The notes under the pieces are model-generated. The model saw nothing but the letters and a program-made list of their open reading frames with translations. It was not told the origin of the DNA and searched no databases. From Candidatus Limnocylindrus sp. (GTDB taxonomy: Bacteria; Chloroflexota; Limnocylindria; Limnocylindrales; Limnocylindraceae), in assembly GCA_040397235.1 (NCBI GenBank), contig JBBAWH010000001.1:243640-307639 (forward strand): a stretch of DNA of 64,000 bases, read 5' to 3'. The position numbers were made by a program, and so were the translations under genes. Positions 3,197 to 49,469 of this stretch are shown here, in pieces; the stretch's first letter is position 1; every line of letters starts with the position of its first letter.

Positions 3197-5101
3197 TCAG
3201 CCACGATCCGCGCCGAGGGCCGATAGGATCCGTGCGGCAAGGGCATCATCTACCCCTGCGACCTCGGTGAGAGCCTCAACGGGGGCGGCGGCGATCCCCG
3301 CCGCTGATCCGAACCGACGCAGGAGCGCCTTTCGCTTCGTTGGGCCGAGCCCACGGATGCCGTCGAGCCGGCTCGCCGTCGCCGCTCGACTGCGCAGCGT
3401 GCGGTGATAGCCGATCGCAAACCGATGTGCCTCATCGCGAAGCCGTTGCAGAAGGCGCAGCCCAGGATCGGTGGCGGGGAGAAGAATCGGCGCGGAGGCG
3501 TCGCGCGGCCAGAGCTCTTCGCGCTCCTTGGCAAGACCGACGAGAGGGATTGTTAAACCTGCAGCATCCAGAACGGCGGCGGCGGCAGAGACCTGCCCGC
3601 GACCACCATCGATGACAAGAAGGTCGGGCAGGCTCCAAGCGCGTAACTCAGCCTCACCACTCCGTTGGGTCCCATCCGCCACGGATCGGGCGAAGCGACG
3701 CGTGAGCGCTTCCGCGTGTGCCGCGAAGTCATCCTGCCCAGTCACCCCCTTAATACGGAAGCGGCGGTACTCCTTCGGCGCAAGCTGACCCTCTTGTGCC
3801 ACGGTTAGCGACGAGACGGTGAATGCTCCCTGAATAGTGCTCACATCGACGCACTCAATGCGCGCCGGCGATGCATCGAGGTTGAGCGCGACGGCGAGCG
3901 CTGAGAGCGCCGCGTCGGCACGCTCACGATCGGCGTCCTCTTCGGCCTCGCGACGAATGAGCCACTCCTCTGCGTTGCGTTCGGCCAGCCGCAGGATCCG
4001 CGCCCGATCACCACGCTGCGGCACGCGCATCTCAACGCGACCCTCGCGACGCGCCGAGAGGAACTCAAGGATCTCCGGGTCACTCCGCTCTGCAGCAGTC
4101 GCAATTGAGGGTGGGATCTCGCCTGCACGTGCGTAGTAGCTTGCAGCAAAGCCTGCGAGGAGCTCTGAGTCACCTGAATCCCCAGCCTCCACTCGATGCA
4201 CATCGCGTCCCACCAGTGCTGAGTCACGAATCTGGAAACAGGCGATGGCAATGTGGCGTCCGTGGCGAGCGATCCCCAGCACATCCTCGTCAGGTCGCCC
4301 TGAGGTCGGCACCTTCTGTTCGTCAAACGTTGTCTCTAGGGAGAGCACCGCATCGCGGATACGCGCGGCGTCTTCAAACGCTTCGCGCTCGGCGGCAGAC
4401 TCCATGCGTGTGGTGAGCATGGTGATGGCGGCGCGGGAGCGACCACCGAGGAAGAGTTGCACCCCGTCAATCTCACGCTGGTAGTCGGCCACCGGGATGT
4501 TGCCGAGGCAGGGGCCCTGGCAGCGCTTCAAGTCATAGAGGAGACAGGGGCGCTCTAGTGCGCGCTCCATCGGCTTGATTGAGATCTCGCAGGTGCGAAA
4601 TTGAAAGAGGCGCTTGATCGCCTCCATGGCAGCATTCACCGAACCGGGTGTGGTGTATGGGCCGAAGTAGCGTGAGCCATCGCGCACGAGTCGCCGAGTG
4701 CGCTCCACACGTGGATACGGATCTGCCGTGACGCGAATGTAGGGGTAGCTGCGATCGTCACGAAGACGGATGTTGTACTTGGGGAGATGCCGCCGCACGA
4801 GTGTGGCCTCGAGGAGGAGCGCCTCCTTCGTGGAGTCGGTGACCGTCCAGTCAAGTGTGGCAACCTCTGCAATCGCATCGCGAATGCGGTGTGCGCCTGG
4901 CTCCCCACCCGCCTGCCAGTAGCTGCGAACGCGTTTGGTGAGGTGCGTCGCCTTGCCGACGTAGATGATCTTTCCTGCACTATCCGAGAAGAGGTAGACA
5001 CCGGGCGCGTCAGGGAGAACCTTGAGCGCCGCCGCGATTGCGTCGGGGACGCTTGGCGCCGGGAGCCGCTCAGGCGCCATCACGCGCCCCAGTACGACCA
5101 C
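3197..5101 (-). CDS. uvrC: Excinuclease ABC subunit C
   Basis: GIY-YIG N-terminus (PGVYLFSDSAGKIIYVGKA..RVRSYW), UvrBC-interaction and C-terminal HhH regions, 634 aa. The start could also be the Met at 5080. Confidence 0.9.
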   Translation of the reverse strand: MVVLGRVMAPERLPAPSVPDAIAAALKVLPDAPGVYLFSDSAGKIIYVGKATHLTKRVRSYWQAGGEPGAHRIRDAIAEVATLDWTVTDSTKEALLLEATLVRRHLPKYNIRLRDDRSYPYIRVTADPYPRVERTRRLVRDGSRYFGPYTTPGSVNAAMEAIKRLFQFRTCEISIKPMERALERPCLLYDLKRCQGPCLGNIPVADYQREIDGVQLFLGGRSRAAITMLTTRMESAAEREAFEDAARIRDAVLSLETTFDEQKVPTSGRPDEDVLGIARHGRHIAIACFQIRDSALVGRDVHRVEAGDSGDSELLAGFAASYYARAGEIPPSIATAAERSDPEILEFLSARREGRVEMRVPQRGDRARILRLAERNAEEWLIRREAEEDADRERADAALSALAVALNLDASPARIECVDVSTIQGAFTVSSLTVAQEGQLAPKEYRRFRIKGVTGQDDFAAHAEALTRRFARSVADGTQRSGEAELRAWSLPDLLVIDGGRGQVSAAAAVLDAAGLTIPLVGLAKEREELWPRDASAPILLPATDPGLRLLQRLRDEAHRFAIGYHRTLRSRAATASRLDGIRGLGPTKRKALLRRFGSAAGIAAAPVEALTEVAGVDDALAARILSALGADRG

Positions 5102-5417
5102 GGAGTGCCTCGCGGCGATTCAGGATGCGCAGGATCTCGTCGAGCGCCTCGCGGAGCTCGATCACCGCCTCACCAGAGGCGATATCGGCAAGGCCATTCC
5201 CTGGCCCAAGGGCGGCGCGGACGGCCACAACACCCTTGCGCAGCGCTGCTCCGTGGGCGTCGCGGAGCTGCGTCGTCCAGGCGCGGTACGGCAGGAATCT
5301 GGCTCGGGCGCGTTCGTCACTCAGCTCATCAAGGATTCGCTCAAGGAGTTGCGCCGCGCGCAGTCCGGCTTGGTCGAGTGCTGGATCGGCATGTCGAGGG
5401 AGGTGCGCCTCAGCCAT
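5070..5417 (-). CDS. Hypothetical small helical protein (115 aa) between uvrA and uvrC
   Basis: The ATG lies 2 nt after the uvrA stop, with a GGAG Shine-Dalgarno 5 nt upstream. It fills an otherwise 318-bp gap in a very compact operon. I recognise no homology. Third-position GC is lower than in neighbouring genes, so coding status is uncertain. Confidence 0.3.
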   Translation of the reverse strand: MAEAHLPRHADPALDQAGLRAAQLLERILDELSDERARARFLPYRAWTTQLRDAHGAALRKGVVAVRAALGPGNGLADIASGEAVIELREALDEILRILNRREALRGRTGARDGA

Positions 5418-5419
5418 CG

Positions 5420-8329
5420 CTACTCCAGCGAGTGGATCGGCTCGCCCTTCAGCGCAAGGGCGAGATAGCGACCGGTATGGCTGCGCTTCACCTTTACAAC
5501 CTGCTCAGGCGTCCCCTCTGCGATGAGTTCGCCACCGCGGCTTCCGCCGTCGGGTCCAAGATCGATCACCCAGTCTGCGGTCTTGATCACATCAAGGTTG
5601 TGCTCGATCACGATGACGCTGTTGCCGCCATCAACAAGTCGATGCAGAACATGCAGCAGGCGATCGACATCGGCGAAGTGCAGCCCCGTGGTTGGCTCGT
5701 CGAGGATGTACATCGTGCGGCCGGTTGAGCGACGGGCTAACTCTGTGGCGAGCTTGACCCGCTGCGCCTCGCCGCCCGAGAGCGTCGTTGCCGACTGCCC
5801 GAGGCGGAGATAGCCGAGGCCCACCTCGCTCAGCGTCTTGAGGCGATTACGAATCGCGGGCACTGCGAAGAAGCGCTCGAGCGCATCCTCCACCTGCAGC
5901 TCCAGCACATCGGCAATCGTCATCCCCTTCCAGGTCACCTCGAGCGCCTCGCGGTTGTAGCGCTTCCCCTGGCACGTTTCGCAGGGCACGTACACGTCGG
6001 GGAGGAACTGCATCTCAATCTGCAAGATGCCGTCGCCAGAACAGGTCTCGCAGCGGCCACCCTTGACGTTGAAGGAGAAGCGGCCGGCCGCATAGCCGCG
6101 GAGGCGTGCCTCTTGCGTGGCGGCGAAGAGCTCGCGGATCGGCGTGAAGAGACCGACGTAGGTGGCAGGATTCGAGCGCGGCGTACGGCCGATTGGGCTC
6201 TGGTCAATCTCAATCACCTTGTCGATCTCGTCGAGGCCCGTGATCCTATCGTGCGCCCCTGGTCGCTCTTTCGCGCCGTGCAACCTGCGCGCGAGCGCCT
6301 TCTGCAGGATGTCGGTGACGAGGGTGCTCTTGCCGCTCCCCGAGACGCCCGTCACGGCAACGAATTCGCCGAGCGGGAAGGCGACGTCGATCTCGCGCAG
6401 GTTGTGCTCCCGCGCCCCCTTGACCGTGATCGCCTTGCCACTCCCCTTGCGGCGCGTCTTCGGCACCACCACCGAGCGGTCACCACGAAGGTAGGCGCCA
6501 GTAATGGAGTCCTTCGCTTCAAGGAGCTCCTTGAATGTGCCGTTGGAAATCAAGCGACCGCCATGTTCGCCTGCGCCGGGTCCAATATCTACGACCCAGT
6601 CGGCCGTACGAATCGTCTCTTCGTCATGCTCAACCACCAGCACCGTATTGCCGAGGTCGCGCAGCCGAATCAGCGTGGCGATCAGGCGAGCGTTATCACG
6701 CTGGTGCAGGCCGATCGATGGCTCATCAAGGATGTAGAGGACGCCGACCAACCGTGACCCGATCTGCGTTGCCAGGCGAATGCGCTGTGCCTCGCCGCCC
6801 GAGAGCGTGGTAGCAGAGCGATCAACGGTGAGATAGTCGAGGCCAACGTCAACGAGGAAGCCGGCGCGCTCACTGATCTCCTTAATCACCGCCTTGGCGA
6901 TCGTGCGTTCGCGCTCACCGAGCGCTTTGGAGAGGGTGTTGATCCACGGCACCAGCTCGCCGATCGGCATGGAGGCTACTTCAGCAATATTGCGCCCGTC
7001 CACGCGTACGGCGAGGATCTCAGGCTTCAGGCGGCGACCCTTGCAGTCGGGGCAGGGCCTACTCACCATGTAGCGCTCAATCTCTACGCGCACCAACTCT
7101 GATTCCGTCTCTTTGTGTCGGCGCTCAAGGTTCGCGATGATCCCCTCAAAGGCAGCCTTATAGGTATTGCTGTAACTCGAGTTCTCGTAGGTCACCGTGT
7201 AGCGATCCTCACGCTCGGCGTGCAGCAGGTAGTCGAGTGCACCCTTCGGGAGATCGCCCAGCGGCGTCTTGGGATTCCACTTGTTCGCCTTCATCGCTGC
7301 AGTGACCACTTTCAAGTACCAGCTCCCCTCTGGTGAGCGGGACCACGGGATCAAGCCGCCGGTGAGCACCGACTTCTCTGGATCAATCACGCGCTCCTCG
7401 TCGACCTCAAGGCGGAAGCCGAGCCCGGTGCAGGTTTCGCAGGCGCCGTGCGGGGAGTTAAAGCTGAACGAACGCGGCTGCAGGTCGTCGATCACCGTAC
7501 CGTCGTAGGCGCAGCCGAGCTTCTCGCTGAAGAGTCGCTCTTCAAAGGCTGGCTTCTCTTTCTCGGCTGGGGCGGGGGCAACAATGGCGAGTCCCTCTCC
7601 CAGTTTGATCGCCGTCTCTACAGAGTCGGCGAGTCGGCTGCGATCAGGGATCGGCAGAGGCTTCCCCTTCTCATCCACGGGATGCTGGACAACAAAGCGA
7701 TCGACGATGACTTCAATGGAGTGGCGCTTCTTCTTGTCGAGCTTCGGCAGATCATCGGCACTGAGATCGTACTGGACGCCATCAACGCGCACGCGGCTGA
7801 ATCCGGACTTTCGCGCCGCCTCATACATGCGCTCCCCCTCGCTCTTGCGATCGCGAAGGAGTGGGCCAAGCACGAGGATGCGTGTGCCGTCAGGGAGCTT
7901 GAGGATCTCTTCAACGATCTGGTCGAGCGAGACGCGACTGATCGGACGGTCGCACTTTGGGCAGTGCGGGGTTCCGGCACGCGCGTAGAGGAGTCGAAAG
8001 TGGTCCCAGATCTCGGTGATCGTGCCGACGGTCGAACGCGGATTGCGCGACGACCCCTTCTGGTCAATAGAGATGGCTGGCGAGAGGCCATCAATGGAAT
8101 CGACGTCGGGCTTCTCCATCTGCCCAAGGAACTGGCGTGCGTAGGCGGAGAGGCTCTCGACGTAGCGGCGCTGACCTTCGGCGTAGATCGTGTCGAAGGC
8201 GAGGCTCGACTTACCCGAGCCAGAGATGCCGGTGACAACGACGAGCTGGTCCCGTGGAATGTCGAGGTCGATTCCCTTGAGGTTGTGCTCGCGGGCGCCG
8301 CGAACGGAGATCTTGTTCTGTCCCACCAC
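5420..8329 (-). CDS. uvrA: Excinuclease ABC subunit A
   Basis: 969 aa with two ABC ATPase modules ([12 protein letters not shown] / [11 protein letters not shown]) and zinc-finger CxxC pairs. The start codon overlaps the uvrB stop. Confidence 0.95.
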
Positions 8330-18324: not shown

Positions 18325-18410
18325 GCCGAAGTGGCGAAATGGCAGACGCAACCGACTCAAAATCGGTCGACTGAAAGGTCATGTGGGTTCGACTCCCACC
18401 TTCGGTACCA
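18325..18410 (+). tRNA. tRNA-Leu (anticodon CAA)
   Basis: GCCGAAG acceptor stem pairing with CTTCGGT, anticodon loop CTCAAAA, a long variable arm, T-arm GTGGG-TTCGACT-CCCAC, discriminator A and encoded CCA. Confidence 0.85.
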
Positions 18411-18437: not shown

Positions 18438-18524
18438 GCCGAAGTGGCGAAATGGCAGACGCATCCGACTTAAAATCGGCCGGTCGATGAGATCATGCGG
18501 GTTCGAGTCCCGCCTTCGGCACCA
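18438..18524 (+). tRNA. tRNA-Leu (anticodon TAA)
   Basis: Near-duplicate of the upstream tRNA-Leu, with anticodon loop CTTAAAA, a long variable arm, T-arm GCGGG-TTCGAGT-CCCGC and encoded CCA. Confidence 0.85.
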
Positions 18525-22800: not shown

Positions 22801-23552
22801 GAAGACTTGAGGTAGAAGTCGCCAGAACCAAACTTCATGCGACCCGGTGTCTCAAGGTTGCTCGCCGTGCCGATGCAGAGGAGCACGTCGTGCGCATCAC
22901 GCTGGTCGGCGCGGACGTAGTGCAGGTCGTTCGTCAACACGAGCGGCAGACCCACTTCGGGGGCGAGACGGAAGAGCTGCTCGTTCAGGCGACGCTGCTC
23001 GGGGAGTCCGTGATCTTGCACCTCAAGGAAGAAGCGCCCCTTCCCAAAGATTTCGCCGTACTTCCCAGCGAGCGCGCGCGCGTGCTCCCAGTCATCAACC
23101 TCCAGCGCGCGTGCGATCTCGCCGTTCAAGCAGCCCGAGAGTCCGACGAGGCCCTCGGCGTGCCGCGCAAGATGGTCGTGGTCGGTACGCGGCTTGTAGT
23201 AGAGCCCATCGAGATGTGCGTCGGTCACGATCCGGCAGAGGTTGCGATAGCCCGTTGCGCTCGTCGCGAGGGCAATGAGGTGGAACGGCTGCTGATCGGC
23301 CTTCCCCTCCTTGTCGCGCATCCCACGGCGAGCGACGTACGTCTCAACGCCGATGATCGGCTTAATCCCGTGCTTCTTCGCCGCCTGGACGAACTGGACC
23401 GAGCCGTAGAGGGCGCCGTGGTCGGTGAGGGCGATGGAGTCCATCCCGAGGCGCTTCGTCTCCTCCATCAGCGCCTCCAGGTTGCTCATGCCATCGAGCA
23501 GGCTGAACTCGCTGTGGACGTGAAGGTGCGTGAAATTAGTCTTGGCGCTCAC
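19863..23552 (-). CDS. dnaE: DNA polymerase III alpha subunit
   Basis: 1229 aa with an N-terminal PHP domain (HLHVHSEFSLLDGM), polymerase core, HhH and OB fold. It carries an unusually long Ala/Pro/Gly-rich C-terminal tail. Confidence 0.95.
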   Translation of the reverse strand: MSAKTNFTHLHVHSEFSLLDGMSNLEALMEETKRLGMDSIALTDHGALYGSVQFVQAAKKHGIKPIIGVETYVARRGMRDKEGKADQQPFHLIALATSATGYRNLCRIVTDAHLDGLYYKPRTDHDHLARHAEGLVGLSGCLNGEIARALEVDDWEHARALAGKYGEIFGKGRFFLEVQDHGLPEQRRLNEQLFRLAPEVGLPLVLTNDLHYVRADQRDAHDVLLCIGTASNLETPGRMKFGSGDFYLKSSEQMAALFPDRPELLKNTRLIAEMVDFSLELGTTRVPDIEVPEGESVETWLTKEAERGLVRRFGTPSDTARTRLEYELNVIIKMGYAAYFLIVADFVRFAREQGIATTCRGSAPGSIVTYALGITPVDPLHYELPFERFLNEDRVTMPDIDIDFEDGRRDEVIRYVSQKYGEDRVAQIITFGTMAARASIRDVGRVLGKSYSEVDRIAKSVPALVNISLAQARKSPEFAAYADGTEYSQLIGLAEQLEGVVRNASTHAAGVVISREPLTEIMALQRATNSEGVMTQIEMHGVEALGLLKFDFLGLANLTILRTAVDRIRETRGIEIDLDKIPLDDAKTFALLASGETTGIFQLESPGMRRYIKELRPTSVYDLAAMVALYRPGPMANIPTYIRRKHGQEAVTYLHPLLEPFLKRTYGVFVYQEDIMAAASALGGFSGPKADTLGYAVRKKKEDVLAGLKQEFITSAAERGVARATIEKVFEAFEPFANYGFNKAHATCYGLIAYQTAYLKANYTVEYMTSVLNAFRSKEEKVAAAIAECRRLGIPVLPPDVDFSNLDFEPEGEAIRFGLLGVKNVGATAAESIVAAREVGEQAASLQEFCERIDLRLANKRVLEALAKVGALRRFGHPAQILLALDDAISGGSSAQRERAAGQVGLFDAMPELAGAGIPALPHVTEASTRERLRWERELMGVYLSDHPMNALAPAMQPYVGTFVGDFSDESFRDETATLGAIVLSIRQMVTKKGAAMAIITVEDLTGSMEVVAFPQVWESTKSSWIEGEGILIAGRTEQRGEEWSLLVESVVPWEEATRLSADAVRSKLTVSSGGRRFAKRFVAPLPNGGIPAGMVPEGMEAGAPLMPERAPAEFDASVAVEAPPAEPLAGAMSNPDPAEIPAGAVLHIKFKARQSVEETIRAMEIVKGELRARPGATRVVVHIPQGGGAQLLPMEQRNGVAWDAGLPAILRDRVGGDGIELELISPAT

Positions 23553-23587
23553 GAGTGGCAGTCTAGCGATCGGCGTACCATCCCCCT

Positions 23588-24118
23588 ATGGATGAGCAGG
23601 AACGCGCACGACTACGGGCAGCCATAGAGGCCGCCGAAGGGGGCGCCCCCGATCCCGCCGCAGCAGACGCGCTCATGCGCCGCATGCTGACGGAGAGTCG
23701 CACCATTGCGGTCGTCGGCGCCTCCCCGCGCCCGGACCGCCCCTCGCACGGCGTCCTGCGCACACTCGCCGCAGCTGGCTGGCAGATCCTCCCGATCAAC
23801 CCCATGCCCGAAGCGCTGCGCGACGGGGTGGCGGGCCTCCCCTGCTACCCAACACTCCGTGCCGCTGCCGCCTCACTTCCAGCTGGCGAGCGGATCGATC
23901 TCGTTGATGTCTTTCGGCGCTCCGAAGAGTGCGAGGAGGTTGCACGCGAGGCCGTCGCGATTGGCGCTCGCGGACTCTGGCTGCAGCTTGGGGTGATTAG
24001 CCCCGCTGCCGCATTGGTCGCCGCCGAAGCATCCATCCCTTTCGTACAGGATCGCTGTCCCGCCATTGAGATTCCGCGCCTGGGCATCTCTGGACCAAAC
24101 CCCCAAGTCACAGCATGA
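23588..24118 (+). CDS. CoA-binding domain protein (YccU-like)
   Basis: 176-aa ORF with the Rossmann-like IAVVGASPRPDRPSHGV signature of small CoA-binding proteins. There is no Shine-Dalgarno sequence, and the stop overlaps the next start (ATGA). Confidence 0.7.
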   Translation: MDEQERARLRAAIEAAEGGAPDPAAADALMRRMLTESRTIAVVGASPRPDRPSHGVLRTLAAAGWQILPINPMPEALRDGVAGLPCYPTLRAAAASLPAGERIDLVDVFRRSEECEEVAREAVAIGARGLWLQLGVISPAAALVAAEASIPFVQDRCPAIEIPRLGISGPNPQVTA

Positions 24119-24861
24119 CCACCAACTGGCTAGCACGCCTCCCTGCAGAGACGGCAGACCGGTTGTCGGCGATCTGGATCCCCGTCGGGCTGCCTGGCTT
24201 CTCTGGTGCCGAGAAGGCGCGCTGGAACGCGCTCCTTAGCGAACGCTTCGGCGCCGATGGCTGGCGGATCTCCCACGTCGTGCGCGGAAAGATCGTGCCA
24301 CGAGCTGTAGCAATCCTTGAATACGAAGAGGCATACCGGCGCTACCTGCGCGACCGTCCTGAGTTGGTGAGCTTCTTGGTAGAGGCCTGCGCAAACGTGT
24401 ACGACGACAACCCGACCAACGTCTACGACAACGACTACGAGCAGCCGCACACGGCGATGAACCACTACCAAGACATCTCCGTACGCCGCGTCATTGCCGA
24501 GCTCGTCGACGATCCAGCCTGGCCAACGGTCACGGCAACACCAGATGAGACCGTAGAACTTCTCGATTTTGGCACCGGTGAGCGCGTCACCACACCGCGC
24601 GCGAGCGGCTTCAGGGGCGATGGGCTGCTACAGATTCGCGATCCCCTCTCCCCTGGATACCTGCTCAGCCCAGCGGTCGTGCCGGCGCATGATCCGGCGC
24701 TGATCACCACGAACCCAGGGCGACGTGAGTGGTATCACGAAGAGGGGTGTGGCCATCTCTCCATCGAAACGTTCTGGCAGTCAAGCAAAGTTGTGGAGGT
24801 GCGTCTGGATCGGTTCCTCGCGTCGGGTGATGCCCGATCCATGCCGCTTGCGGGGCTGTGA
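24115..24861 (+). CDS. Hypothetical protein (248 aa), no recognisable family
   Basis: Translationally coupled at both ends (ATGA upstream, GTGA downstream). Good coding character. It has an acidic Asp/Tyr/Asn-rich segment (VYDDNPTNVYDNDYEQPH) and a WYHEEGCGH motif, with no TM and no signal peptide. Confidence 0.6.
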   Translation: MTTNWLARLPAETADRLSAIWIPVGLPGFSGAEKARWNALLSERFGADGWRISHVVRGKIVPRAVAILEYEEAYRRYLRDRPELVSFLVEACANVYDDNPTNVYDNDYEQPHTAMNHYQDISVRRVIAELVDDPAWPTVTATPDETVELLDFGTGERVTTPRASGFRGDGLLQIRDPLSPGYLLSPAVVPAHDPALITTNPGRREWYHEEGCGHLSIETFWQSSKVVEVRLDRFLASGDARSMPLAGL

Positions 24862-25694
24862 GTAGCGTCTTCTTCGGCACCGTGAGCCGCGATCGATATC
24901 TGGAGAGCGGCCGCACCCTACCTGGCGGCGGTGTCTTAAACATGGCGTACCACTGGGCCGCTGCCGGCAAAGAGTTCCTCCTCCAGACGCGGATCGGCTC
25001 GAGCGACCAGGATCTATTCGTGGAGTTCCTTCAGCGCAATCGGATTCCACATCTCCCTGCATCGCTCGTCGTGCCCGGAGAGAGCTCCTCTATCGATGTC
25101 CGTATCGGAGCAGACCGCCAACCGCAGATGGACAACTACGTCGATGGCGTGTGGAAGGTGGTGCACTGCACTGCAGAAGAGCTCGCCGCACTTGCTACCG
25201 CAACGCATTGGCATACCGTCCTCGTGGAAGGAGCGATCGCAGAGCTGGAGCGACTCTCGGCATCTGGACACCTTGAGCATGTGATGGTCAGTGCAGATTT
25301 CCTTGGGTTTCGCCATTACACGCCAGAGCGGCTCCGCGACACGCTCGCGCACATTGATCTCGCCTTCATCGGCTGGCCCGGCGCGCGAGATGATGCGTCA
25401 CTCGCGGAGGTTCGTCGCTTCGTTCTCGACGCTCAGAAGGTGGCCGTCGTAACCCTTGGGGCGCAGGGGGTTCTGGTCGTTGACGGTGGGAGCCAATCGG
25501 AGACGTTCTACCCAACCGTGGCGGTCCCCGTGGCGGGGAGCACCATTGGGTGTGGGGATGCCTTTATCGCAGCGTTCTTGATGGCGCACCAGGCTGGCGC
25601 CTCCTTGAGTGATTCCGTCGCTGCCGGGCAATCGGCGGGAGCTACCGCGACGGCGTGGAGTCTCCCCCTCCCTGACGCAGCGTACGCAGACTAG
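24858..25694 (+). CDS. PfkB/ribokinase-family carbohydrate or nucleoside kinase
   Basis: 278 aa. The C-terminal anion-hole motif TIGCGDAFIAAF (the DTxGAGD equivalent) and overall ribokinase-fold pattern are present. The GTG start overlaps the preceding stop. Confidence 0.8.
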   Translation: MSSVFFGTVSRDRYLESGRTLPGGGVLNMAYHWAAAGKEFLLQTRIGSSDQDLFVEFLQRNRIPHLPASLVVPGESSSIDVRIGADRQPQMDNYVDGVWKVVHCTAEELAALATATHWHTVLVEGAIAELERLSASGHLEHVMVSADFLGFRHYTPERLRDTLAHIDLAFIGWPGARDDASLAEVRRFVLDAQKVAVVTLGAQGVLVVDGGSQSETFYPTVAVPVAGSTIGCGDAFIAAFLMAHQAGASLSDSVAAGQSAGATATAWSLPLPDAAYAD

Positions 25695-25963
25695 GTCAGC
25701 AGGGCGAGCAAGATTCCTGCGGCCGCTGCAAGGCCAACGCCCGCCAAGCGGCGCAATCGATTGGCGATGAGCTCACCCTCGAGACGATCGACAAGGTCGG
25801 GGCCACTCCCCGGGGTGCCGCGCCACGCCTCATAGCGAGTCGCTGCACCGACGCGGCTTGCCCACTCCGTTCGCGCTCGAAGGAGCGGTGGGAGCCGGAG
25901 TGCAAGGTAGACGAACCCGGCGATGCCGAGACCGCCAACGAAGAGTCGAACCAGGTCGAGCAC
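25691..25963 (-). CDS. Hypothetical small membrane protein (90 aa, two TM helices)
   Basis: The GTG start immediately follows the gatB stop (TAA-GTG). It has two hydrophobic helices and GC3 around 70%. Its stop overlaps the PfkB stop at a CTAG. Confidence 0.4.
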   Translation of the reverse strand: MLDLVRLFVGGLGIAGFVYLALRLPPLLRARTEWASRVGAATRYEAWRGTPGSGPDLVDRLEGELIANRLRRLAGVGLAAAAGILLALLT

Positions 25964-45046: not shown

Positions 45047-45496
45047 CTATGCAGCGAGGGCCGCGTAGGCGCGCTCAACGAGGCCGCACTCTGTCTGGAA
45101 GTCCAGGAGGGCAATCGCCTCATCCATCGGCACCCAGCGCACCTCGTCGAACTCTTTATCCCACTGATCGAACGAACCGCCGATCGCTTCCATCAGGTAG
45201 TAGTGCACCGTTTTGTCGATGCGCTCCCCGCCGCGCGTAAACGAGTAGTGAATGGCATCAAAATACGAGAGGATCTGCACCTCAAGGCCCGTCTCTTCGC
45301 GCACCTCGCGAAGCGCCGTCTCCTCTCGGGTCTCACCCTCTTCAGGGGTCCCCTTCGGAAGTGACCAGATGAAGCCGTCGCGCTCTCGACGACGGCGTCC
45401 AATCACGATCTCTGGCCGGCCGCCGACACCTCGAATGACGAGGCCTCCAGCCGACATTGCGCTGCGGCGTGTTGCTCCCATGCGCTGCTCCCTCAC
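45047..45496 (-). CDS. NUDIX hydrolase
   Basis: 149 aa with the Nudix box GTPEEGETREETALREVREETGLEV (GX5EX7REUXEEXGU). Confidence 0.8.
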   Translation of the reverse strand: MREQRMGATRRSAMSAGGLVIRGVGGRPEIVIGRRRRERDGFIWSLPKGTPEEGETREETALREVREETGLEVQILSYFDAIHYSFTRGGERIDKTVHYYLMEAIGGSFDQWDKEFDEVRWVPMDEAIALLDFQTECGLVERAYAALAA

Positions 45497-48345: not shown

Positions 48346-49347
48346 CTACTCAAATTGTCCGATCACATCCACGAGAAGGTCCGCAAAACGAGCTGAGTCC
48401 ACCCCTACGGCAACATCCACTGAGGCGGCGCGTCCGCGATCACGTAGCCGCTCGGGGAACCAATCCACCACTGTCCTGCCGCGCTGAAGATCAGCGAGCT
48501 CGATGTCAACAGCGGCGTGCACTACGGCAACGAGTTCAGGGTCCACCAGGTGCGCCACTGCAACCGCGTCATGGATTGCGCAGTAATTCCATCCATAACG
48601 CTCTTGGTAAAACACCTCAAAAAAGCCAAGCAGATCAGAGAAGACGCGTCCGGCTCGGTTGCCAGTCGCCTCAAGGCGCGCCCGCTCAGCGGCCCCCATC
48701 TTGGCAAGATGCGTCGCATCAAGGCCAACCATGGTGATCGGGATCCCGCTTGCGAATACGACAGCGGCAGCATCTGGATCGACGTAGACGTTGAACTCTG
48801 CCGCGCTCGTAACGTTTCCTTCGCCGACCGCACCGCCCATCCATGAGATGTGCGAAACCTTCGAGATCAGCTCGGGGTGCGCTTGGATGAACAGCGCGAT
48901 ATTCGTGAGCGGCCCGAGCGGCGCCAAGACGACCGGCTCTGGCGAAGCGGCAAGGAGCGTTGCAATCAGATCGACCGCGCCAGCTTCGTGCACGTGGCCT
49001 GCGGGTTCTGGAAGGTCTGCCCCCTCGAGGCCCGACTCCCCGTGAACATACGCCGCCGTGAAGAGTGGTCGCACAAGCGGCACCGCAGCACCGGCCGCCA
49101 CAGGCATATCGTGGGCGCCCAACAGCGCGAGTACCCGCCGGGTATTCAGGAAGGTGTTCGGCAGGGTTGAGTTCCCCGCAACTACCGTGACGCCAAGCAG
49201 ATTCAGTTCAGGTCGCGCGATAGCGATAGCAATTGCCATTGCATCATCGTGCCCTGGGTCGCAATCAATGATGAGAGGGAGCGGCTTCGCACGAGTGCCG
49301 AGTGGAGCGCGACGTGGCGAGTTTGGATACGGCGTTGAGAGTGGCAT
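48346..49347 (-). CDS. Inosine-uridine preferring nucleoside hydrolase family protein
   Basis: N-terminal PLIIDCDPGHDDAMAIAIAI (DxDxxxDD calcium/ribose-binding motif). The start is taken at the Met at 49347, because the longer ORF would run into tRNA-Val. Confidence 0.85.
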   Translation of the reverse strand: MPLSTPYPNSPRRAPLGTRAKPLPLIIDCDPGHDDAMAIAIAIARPELNLLGVTVVAGNSTLPNTFLNTRRVLALLGAHDMPVAAGAAVPLVRPLFTAAYVHGESGLEGADLPEPAGHVHEAGAVDLIATLLAASPEPVVLAPLGPLTNIALFIQAHPELISKVSHISWMGGAVGEGNVTSAAEFNVYVDPDAAAVVFASGIPITMVGLDATHLAKMGAAERARLEATGNRAGRVFSDLLGFFEVFYQERYGWNYCAIHDAVAVAHLVDPELVAVVHAAVDIELADLQRGRTVVDWFPERLRDRGRAASVDVAVGVDSARFADLLVDVIGQFE

Positions 49348-49392
49348 TGGATTCGGCGTCAGTGGGCTCACGCGCGGACTATACAGCCTAGG

Positions 49393-49469
<77 letters not shown>

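Follow-up and report, generated by a model that had tools for sequence, protein, structure and literature searches.

We analyzed a stretch of 64,000 nucleotides (nt) from Candidatus Limnocylindrus sp. (contig JBBAWH010000001.1, positions 243,640 to 307,639; hereafter the window) and found that it encodes a 248-amino-acid (aa) protein, here called X, whose family appears to be undescribed. The conserved unit is a two-gene cassette in which X is followed by a PfkB-family kinase, and the two are a functional pair. We observed coupling of these genes, fusions of X to other domains, an absence of known homologues, and a set of conserved residues. On this evidence we tentatively propose that X and PfkB could well form a two-enzyme ribosyl salvage cassette, in which the kinase would make a riboside 5′-phosphate and X would convert it hydrolytically. 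In the window, the pair belongs to a module of three open reading frames (ORFs):

23588..24118, + strand: ORF1, a CoA_binding_2 (YccU/YneT-type) protein of 176 aa, ATG start, Pfam PF13380
24115..24861, + strand: protein X, 248 aa, ATG start, the central finding; a long-form member of an undescribed α/β domain family
24858..25694, + strand: ORF3, a short FrlD-like PfkB-family kinase of 278 aa, GTG start, Pfam PF00294

All three are real genes. Direct reading of the sequence shows their 4-nt stop/start overlaps (ATGA at 24115-24118, GTGA at 24858-24861), in agreement with a preliminary description of this DNA that had reported three translationally coupled genes.

We found no X match in Pfam at E ≤ 1, and the sole NCBIfam match was a weak one to aspS (E 0.12). 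PHROG and PADLOC (a defense-system library) gave none, nor did the PDB sequences with a single-sequence query or with two profiles, and X has no sequence or fold similarity to any PDB chain. X does not belong to the NADAR fold (NADAR/YbiA), is unrelated in sequence to IndA/PsuG and Q_salvage (Pfam), and has no Pfam homology to the C-terminal domain of CinA (CinA_C), which is the nicotinamide mononucleotide (NMN) deamidase PncC, so any relation to PncC is one of functional analogy only. No homologue was found among the cultured phages of INPHARED or the plasmids of PLSDB, and a literature search on the X domain and its fusions returned nothing relevant. For more than 200 homologues, the precomputed Pfam annotation of the X domain is blank, and public sources that name X always call it 'hypothetical protein', including the NCBI records from metagenome-assembled genomes (MAGs) of Candidatus Limnocylindrus and Aquidulcis. 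By every test run, X is not a member of any system with which it was compared. As far as we can tell from these searches, the family is new in sequence as well as in fold. The preliminary description had recognized no family for the 248-aa protein, had proposed it as an undescribed one, and had named profile searches as the check; these place X in no well-characterized family and match it to no curated model or PDB relative.

X has 898 homologue clusters (E ≤ 1e-3), which are conserved in length and 62-97% identical. Clustered at 90% identity, the family has about 900 clusters of the long form and more than 500 of the short form. We confirmed 175 genome loci of X and fetched 80 of them. Most lie in Chloroflexota (Limnocylindria-type and Anaerolineae-type MAGs) and 17 are labelled Actinomycetota (Ilumatobacteraceae, Acidimicrobiaceae, Propionibacteriales); even in the latter, identity to the window protein is 62-75%. 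The family occurs in MAGs of Limnocylindria and of acidimicrobial bacteria that derive from metagenomes of freshwater, groundwater and soil. Outside the genus-level clade, the median identity of X is 67%, compared with 49% for PfkB and 46% for the CoA-binding protein. One public 294-aa 'protein' (P0127) differs from X by systematic replacements (P>F/L, A>V, R>C/W, H>Y), as if every coding-strand C had been read as T; it looks like an assembly of bisulfite- or deaminase-converted reads and is a database artefact, not a variant.

An AlphaFold2 model of X built with 27 close homologues reached a predicted local distance difference test score (pLDDT) of 78, with the conserved C-terminal third poorly resolved; with 92 distant homologues added, pLDDT was 91.8 and the predicted template modelling score (pTM) 0.88. 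Conservation was computed over 119 long- and short-form sequences with a mean column identity of 30%. Eight residues are invariant in 119/119 (Y70, H117, R124, F166, G168, P186, E218, Q222) and about 26 nearly so, with polar or aromatic side chains predominating. Those conserved at 90% or more include W21, G28, G31, W50, E71, Y74, V95-Y96-D97, N102, Y108, Q119, D120 and R125 and, in the C-terminal part, R175, V189-P190, H192, P194, W206 and F220. In addition, S216 and K225 are invariant in alignment A1, and the serine is conserved at 90% or more in alignment A3. Judged from the alignment, the pattern is enzyme-like. The features of X are as follows:

24187..24216, + strand: X aa 25-34, GLPGFSGAEK, Gly-rich loop between strand 1 and helix 1, pattern PG[YF]xGxx[KR]; G28 and G31 conserved at 90% or more
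24397..24489, + strand: X aa 95-125, VYDDNPTNVYDNDYEQPHTAMNHYQDISVRR, family-wide core signature; H117 and R124 invariant, V95, Y96, D97, N102, Y108, Q119, D120 and R125 conserved at 90% or more
24511..24609, + strand: X aa 133-165, subfamily-specific β-hairpin insertion, absent from the short form of about 180 aa
24610..24696, + strand: X aa 166-194, FRGDGLLQIR...PAVVPAHDP, second conserved block (F.G..L.QIR, L.P..VP.H.P); F166, G168 and P186 invariant
24730..24756, + strand: X aa 206-214, WYHEEGCGH, long-form subfamily only, except W206
24760..24789, + strand: X aa 216-225, SIETFWQSSK, C-terminal signature S.E.F[WY]Q.[NS]K; E218 and Q222 invariant

The Gly-rich loop together with three conserved arginines suggests a putative phosphate-binding site. 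In the model, the strands of the insertion are residues 146-151 and 157-161. Both sequence features singled out in the preliminary description are present: the acidic stretch VYDDNPTNVYDNDYEQPH (aa 95-112) lies inside the core signature, and WYHEEGCGH falls where the model is least confident (pLDDT 60 for residues 201-210 and 80 for 211-220). The H/E/C/H metal site read into the latter did not hold up as a feature of the family and was rejected, since the motif is limited to the long-form subfamily and C212 is not invariant even there.

We surveyed gene neighborhoods by tblastn and ORF clustering and found PfkB downstream of X on the same strand in 77/80 loci, from at least two phyla. The gap between the two genes is within about 110 nt in 76 loci, with a stop/start overlap in about 16; among the three loci lacking a downstream PfkB, one breaks off with its contig right behind X. 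Direct adjacency of the CoA-binding gene to X is confined to the ten closest genomes (L001-L010, of the Limnocylindrus/Aquidulcis clade), where all three ORFs overlap by 4 nt as in the window. In other Limnocylindrales, it lies 1-3.5 kb upstream of X, and a CoA_binding_2 gene is found in the same neighborhood and on the same strand as X in 47/80 loci. No CoA-binding homologue occurs in the fetched flanks of the Actinomycetota-labelled loci or of L048, L050, L077 and L078. PfkB is thus the sole near-universal neighbor of X and the CoA-binding gene is not; hence, the triad is not a conserved three-step pathway, nor is it conserved as an operon. Of the small pathway that the preliminary description had drawn from the triad, whose conservation in related genomes it had named as a check, the pairing of kinase and X stands, and the CoA-binding gene with its acyl-CoA step largely falls away.

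In the related locus L081 (6439-8695), the CoA_binding_2 gene is joined by a stop/start overlap to a downstream tandem cytidine deaminase (cdd) gene, and a PNP_UDP_1 phosphorylase gene follows. This group is separated from X by an antisense gene for a pyridoxal-phosphate-dependent enzyme, and a Bmp-type ATP-binding cassette (ABC) importer and an inosine-uridine nucleoside hydrolase (IU_nuc_hydro) lie divergently upstream. The tight triad of the window is best read as a lineage-specific arrangement without the cdd/PNP block of relatives such as L081, and the absence of that block may reflect loss in a streamlined genome. As a side observation, the coupling in L081 suggests that the YccU-type CoA_binding_2 protein may itself be linked to nucleoside catabolism.

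Three Anaerolineae-type MAGs (L048, L050, L077) carry a single + strand operon of a Bmp substrate-binding protein, an ABC ATPase, two BPD_transp_2 permeases, X and PfkB; L078 has the ATPase, permeases and X, with no PfkB within 5 kb. The context of L048 also holds Amidohydro_1. In the Actinomycetota-labelled loci, the X-PfkB dyad stands alone with no conserved extra neighbors, and the upstream candidate ORFs are antisense shadows or a non-conserved tetratricopeptide-repeat regulator. GatB adjoins the cassette in 53 loci, all Limnocylindria-type, and is absent from this position in the 17 Actinomycetota-labelled loci and in four Anaerolineae-type loci that were checked. We treated this adjacency as lineage-specific synteny and rejected a functional link to GatCAB.

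A profile search of 1.84 billion representative proteins returned 410 matches, and the distant ones align with positions 20-131 and 165-235 of the X profile only. This two-block matching defines a short form of about 180 aa that lacks the hairpin insertion and the WYHxEGCGH motif. The broader X domain occurs in bacteria, DPANN-like archaea and jumbo-phage contigs, and no Pfam domain covers the X region of the short-form proteins. Among 38 multidomain members, 8 carry a cytidylyltransferase-like domain and 4 a PfkB domain. A tri-domain PfkB-X-NadD architecture recurs (P0193, P0201, P0204, P0209, P0249), bi-domain X-NadD or NadD-X proteins exist (P0164, P0244, P0304, P0323, P0168), and X-NUDIX fusions number at least eight (P0332 and at least seven others). 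Hence, X is associated with a kinase by gene order in the window and, independently, by gene fusion in distant relatives.

For all nucleotidyltransferases fused to X, the nicotinate-nucleotide adenylyltransferase model TIGR00482 is the best match or second behind another NadD model, and three score above its cut-off of 112.45 (P0164, 137.5; P0168, 121.6; P0249, 117.4). None is of the HldE/RfaE type. The fused PfkB domains weakly match the ATP-dependent ribose-1-phosphate kinase model NF053626 (E 8e-7 and 5.5e-10). Sporadic fusion partners are an RNase Z-like metallo-β-lactamase, PHP, HAD, CofD, Pth2, cREC_REC and a CdiI-like immunity domain. Three apparent single-ORF fusions of long-form X to PfkB (P0122, P0175, P0240) have the look of read-throughs caused by truncation or frameshift, and we left them out of the evidence. 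The X domain is also found duplicated in tandem within one polypeptide (P0131, P0145, P0144) and inside giant proteins of 1,400-2,900 aa with no other recognized domain (P0144, P0206, P0216, P0256).

Beyond cellular bacteria, X is found in 11 IMG/VR contigs, several of them longer than 200 kb (jumbo-phage contigs), with NAMPT, NUDIX, PARP, IDO, RtcB and HAD_SAK_2 each seen once as a neighbor. In the phage-like contig L091, the gene for an X-NadD fusion (7000-8271) is surrounded by two genes each for ADP-ribosylglycohydrolases and RtcB ligases and by single genes for a SpoU methylase, a Metallophos protein and a low-molecular-weight phosphatase, which makes these surroundings a candidate island of RNA repair or of counter-defense involving nicotinamide adenine dinucleotide (NAD). 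A short-form X with an N-terminus that by eye resembles a signal peptide (P0349, L106 5001-5675) lies between an upstream TonB-dependent receptor and a nucleotide phosphodiesterase, with a 5′-nucleotidase nearby. In L104, a Q_salvage (DUF2419/Qng1-like) gene (5664-6713) lies 49 nt behind a short-form X gene (5001-5615), and this neighbor hints at modified-nucleotide salvage. In archaeal-type contexts, X genes stand alone amid uninformative housekeeping neighbors.

For the proposed ribosyl salvage cassette, we infer the substrate class, the order of the reactions and the chemistry. The Bmp-type ABC importer would bring in a riboside, most likely nicotinamide or nicotinate riboside or else another scavenged nucleoside, and the PfkB kinase would phosphorylate its 5′-OH. 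X would then bind the mononucleotide through the Gly-rich loop and R124, R125 and R175, and would convert it hydrolytically with the polar cluster Y70, D97, N102, Y108, H117, D120, H192, S216, E218, Q222 and K225. P0349, with its signal-peptide-like N-terminus, suggests that X is hydrolase-like rather than dependent on ATP or on phosphoribosyl pyrophosphate (PRPP).

Our most specific guess is that X deamidates NMN to nicotinate mononucleotide (NaMN) and thereby supplies NadD, with cleavage of the N-glycosidic bond to base and ribose-5-phosphate as the next guess. As part of the cassette model, such a deamidase would be a non-homologous analogue of PncC feeding NadD, and we regard this refinement as unlikely, though worth stating. 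NadD prefers NaMN, and a step from NMN to NaMN would explain the position of X between a riboside kinase and NadD. The deamidase proposal needs no ATP, which fits the secreted member. PncC is commonly fused to ADP-ribose pyrophosphatase (COG1058) in CinA, so the X-NUDIX and X-NadD fusions would mirror that arrangement. The viral neighbors of X (ADP-ribosylglycohydrolase, RtcB, NAMPT, NUDIX, PARP, IDO) give its surroundings an NAD and ADP-ribose flavor, in favor of the salvage cassette as a whole.

Several results weigh against the salvage-cassette proposal. No NadD, PncA/B, NadE or PnuC gene adjoins long-form X at any locus examined, and the bacterial context of the long form is general nucleoside catabolism, not NAD-specific. 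An Rfam scan for a riboswitch, of the NAD type or any other, was negative upstream of the module in the window and at 12 related loci. No cysteine is invariant across the family, which also lacks an obvious family-wide set of metal ligands, so that no catalytic chemistry is evident from its residues. The sporadic fusions and the one Q_salvage neighbor point toward processing of RNA ends or ADP-ribose derivatives, not plain NAD salvage. Finally, the PfkB domains fused to X have no BLAST-detectable similarity to the PfkB that neighbors long-form X; since these are different PfkB subfamilies, function is carried between the X subfamilies by analogy only.

The general nucleoside context also suits a generic catabolic route of 'kinase, then nucleotide N-glycosidase', following the logic of PsuK/PsuG or of queuosine and Qng1, in which PfkB would phosphorylate an imported nucleoside, perhaps a modified one, and X would cleave the mononucleotide to base and ribose-5-phosphate with no NAD-specific link in these bacteria. 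The Bmp importer, IU_nuc_hydro, cytidine deaminase, PNP and Amidohydro_1 (L048) around the long form agree with such a route, as do the Q_salvage gene after one short-form X, the secreted member near a phosphodiesterase and a 5′-nucleotidase, and an IU_nuc_hydro homologue in the window itself. It leaves unexplained the recurrent fusion of X to NadD, which is biosynthetic and takes the mononucleotide as its substrate, and X and Q_salvage coexist in L104, so they are not simple substitutes. We consider this route unlikely.

A second possibility is that X is non-catalytic, and serves as a ligand-binding, specificity or regulatory subunit, or as a chaperone for a labile intermediate, attached to PfkB, NadD and NUDIX. 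The dense invariant set of His, Asp, Glu, Arg, Tyr and Gln residues speaks against such a role, as do the stronger conservation of X than of its enzyme partners and the existence of stand-alone, tandem-duplicated and secreted forms, and we find it improbable.

Third, PfkB might be a kinase of ribose-1-phosphate (or of ribose-5-phosphate at C1) that makes ribose-1,5-bisphosphate, with X using this product, for example in a PRPP-independent phosphoribosyl transfer to nicotinamide or nicotinate or as an 'NMN phosphorylase' before NadD. A PNP-type phosphorylase, which would be a source of ribose-1-phosphate, does lie beside the cassette in L081; both the window PfkB (E 1.4e-4) and the fused PfkB domains match NF053626 weakly; and the NUDIX, PfkB and NadD fusions can all be placed on one such chain. 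However, the NF053626 matches fall far under the cut-off of 330 and lie mostly in the generic ATP-site region, a signal-peptide-bearing X beside a TonB receptor is hard to square with a bisphosphate donor, and no context of RuBisCO or ribose-1,5-bisphosphate isomerase was seen. We hold this chain to be very improbable.

Least credible is a single pathway of all three genes, with an acyl-CoA step coupled to the phosphorylation of a sugar, nucleoside or cofactor, and with X as an H/E/C/H metalloenzyme: the 4-nt overlaps in the window and its ten closest relatives and the nearby CoA_binding_2 genes in 47/80 loci are in its favor, but synteny largely refutes it, with X-PfkB kept where the fetched flanks hold no CoA-binding homologue (the Actinomycetota-labelled loci, L048/L050/L077/L078) and the CoA-binding gene of L081 coupled to cytidine deaminase and not to X; moreover, the broader family lacks the H/E/C/H motif, and its C212 is not invariant.

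The proposed cassette resembles several known systems. The closest likeness to PncC/CinA is the role suggested for X between NMN formation and a NaMN-preferring NadD, with X-NUDIX corresponding to COG1058-PncC and X-NadD tying X to the enzyme that follows. The phage system NARP3 consists of a PnuC-like importer and a nicotinamide riboside kinase/NMN adenylyltransferase (PMC13464706). Its outline and that of NadR, with importer, riboside kinase and adenylyltransferase, recur in PfkB-X-NadD and in the Bmp-ABC-X-PfkB operon; here, however, the kinase is PfkB and not P-loop, the importer is a Bmp ABC type and not PnuC, and the extra domain X has no NadR counterpart. PsuK/PsuG and Qng1 (DUF2419, the queuosine-5′-phosphate glycosidase) share the logic of a kinase that makes a nucleoside 5′-phosphate for a dedicated second enzyme to cleave, and PsuK/PsuG is likewise a two-gene unit of kinase plus partner; unlike X, PsuK/PsuG are not fused to NadD, and the sequence of X is unrelated to PsuG. 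FrlD/FrlB also pairs a short PfkB kinase (about 260-280 aa) with a second enzyme acting on the phosphorylated product, but FrlB (SIS), FrlA and FrlC genes are lacking here and the context is one of nucleosides, not Amadori compounds. X fusions share with HldE (RfaE) an N-terminal PfkB and a C-terminal HIGH-motif nucleotidyltransferase. The two HldE steps of the ADP-heptose pathway are separated by the reaction of a third enzyme, the phosphatase GmhB. The X-fused domains differ from HldE in being NadD-type and not RfaE domain II, and their PfkB parts have no specific rfaE_dom_I match; a role for X as a phosphatase between kinase and adenylyltransferase by ADP-heptose logic was rejected because all fused nucleotidyltransferases are NadD-type.

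Profile matches also confirmed that the proteins flanking X in the window are of the YccU-type CoA-binding and PfkB families, as first described. ORF1 is an ordinary member of CoA_binding_2 (E 2.6e-33, 115.4 bits against a cut-off of 22.8) that matches the PDB entries 2duw (E 2e-34), 1iuk and 2d59, and it is predicted to bind CoA. ORF3 matches PF00294 with E 1.1e-13 and 51.7 bits (cut-off 25.8). Its best full-length NCBIfam match is the fructoselysine 6-kinase FrlD (NF007321; aa 12-263 against positions 13-253 of 261), and public pipelines auto-name it 'fructoselysine 6-kinase' (JGI) or 'sugar/nucleoside kinase'. We rejected identity with FrlD, since the 64.6 bits are far under the equivalog cut-off of 247; from its matches, ORF3 is an ordinary PfkB-family member, short and FrlD-like. 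Its C-terminal region aligns with PDB 6wb7 and 3uqe over their GAGD motif, and aa 166-179 (IDLAFIGWPGARDD), where NXXE is expected, show no clear NXXE by eye. The remaining features of the module are as follows:

24921-24947, + strand: ORF3 aa 22-30, PGGGVLNMA, GG motif, from sequence reading
25548-25565, + strand: ORF3 aa 231-236, GCGDAF, GxGD catalytic/anion-hole motif, from sequence reading
23553..23587, no strand: 35-nt spacer to the divergent dnaE, whose GTG start is at 23552 on the - strand

As the preliminary description had noted, no Shine-Dalgarno-like purine-rich run precedes the ORF1 ATG in this spacer. A scan for the sigma-70 consensus found no match in it, and a scan for promoter and terminator consensus sequences found nothing in or adjoining the module, where Rfam places no element either. 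The GC content of the module equals that of its flanks and gives no sign of horizontal transfer. The ORF list of the window is compatible with the view that no second multi-gene unit lies on the + strand of the 64 kb: outside the module, long ORFs on that strand are isolated or are shadows of - strand genes.

Other observations concern the surroundings of the module. A 90-aa ORF (25691-25963, - strand) lies between PfkB and gatB, convergent to PfkB and overlapping its stop by 4 nt; with hydrophobic N- and C-terminal segments, it is probably a small membrane protein, and about 30 related loci, L081 among them, have a similar ORF of about 91 aa at this place. Rfam also identified two adjacent tRNA genes (18325-18407 and 18438-18521) on the + strand inside an otherwise - strand block. 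The IU_nuc_hydro homologue of the window (48346-49428, - strand) is 23 kb from the module and 51% identical to the one beside the L081 cassette; its longest ORF shares about 33 nt with a tRNA gene (49396-49469, - strand), which probably puts the true start of the homologue farther downstream. A short NUDIX-like stretch at 45254-45442 (- strand) matches the NUDIX domain of an X-NUDIX fusion with 35% identity across 77 aa.

The family to which X belongs is widespread and strongly conserved and was missed by every curated library searched. X might define a new enzyme fold and family for a salvage step of pyridine nucleotides or ribosyl metabolites that has until now been credited to unrelated proteins or has had no gene assigned, for example a PncC-independent NMN deamidase or the orphan NMN nucleosidase, used by abundant uncultured freshwater Chloroflexota and Actinomycetota, DPANN-like archaea and jumbo phages, although we think this broad reading somewhat doubtful. 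If it were true, the phage PfkB-X-NadD proteins would be part of a further NAD-rebuilding route of counter-defense. As a salvage enzyme for NAD or nucleosides, X would fill a gap in the metabolic reconstructions of uncultured, vitamin-dependent plankton and would add a component to the toolkit of NAD-centered conflict between phage and host. Even with another chemistry, the dyad of X and PfkB offers a clean system of two proteins that lends itself to testing.

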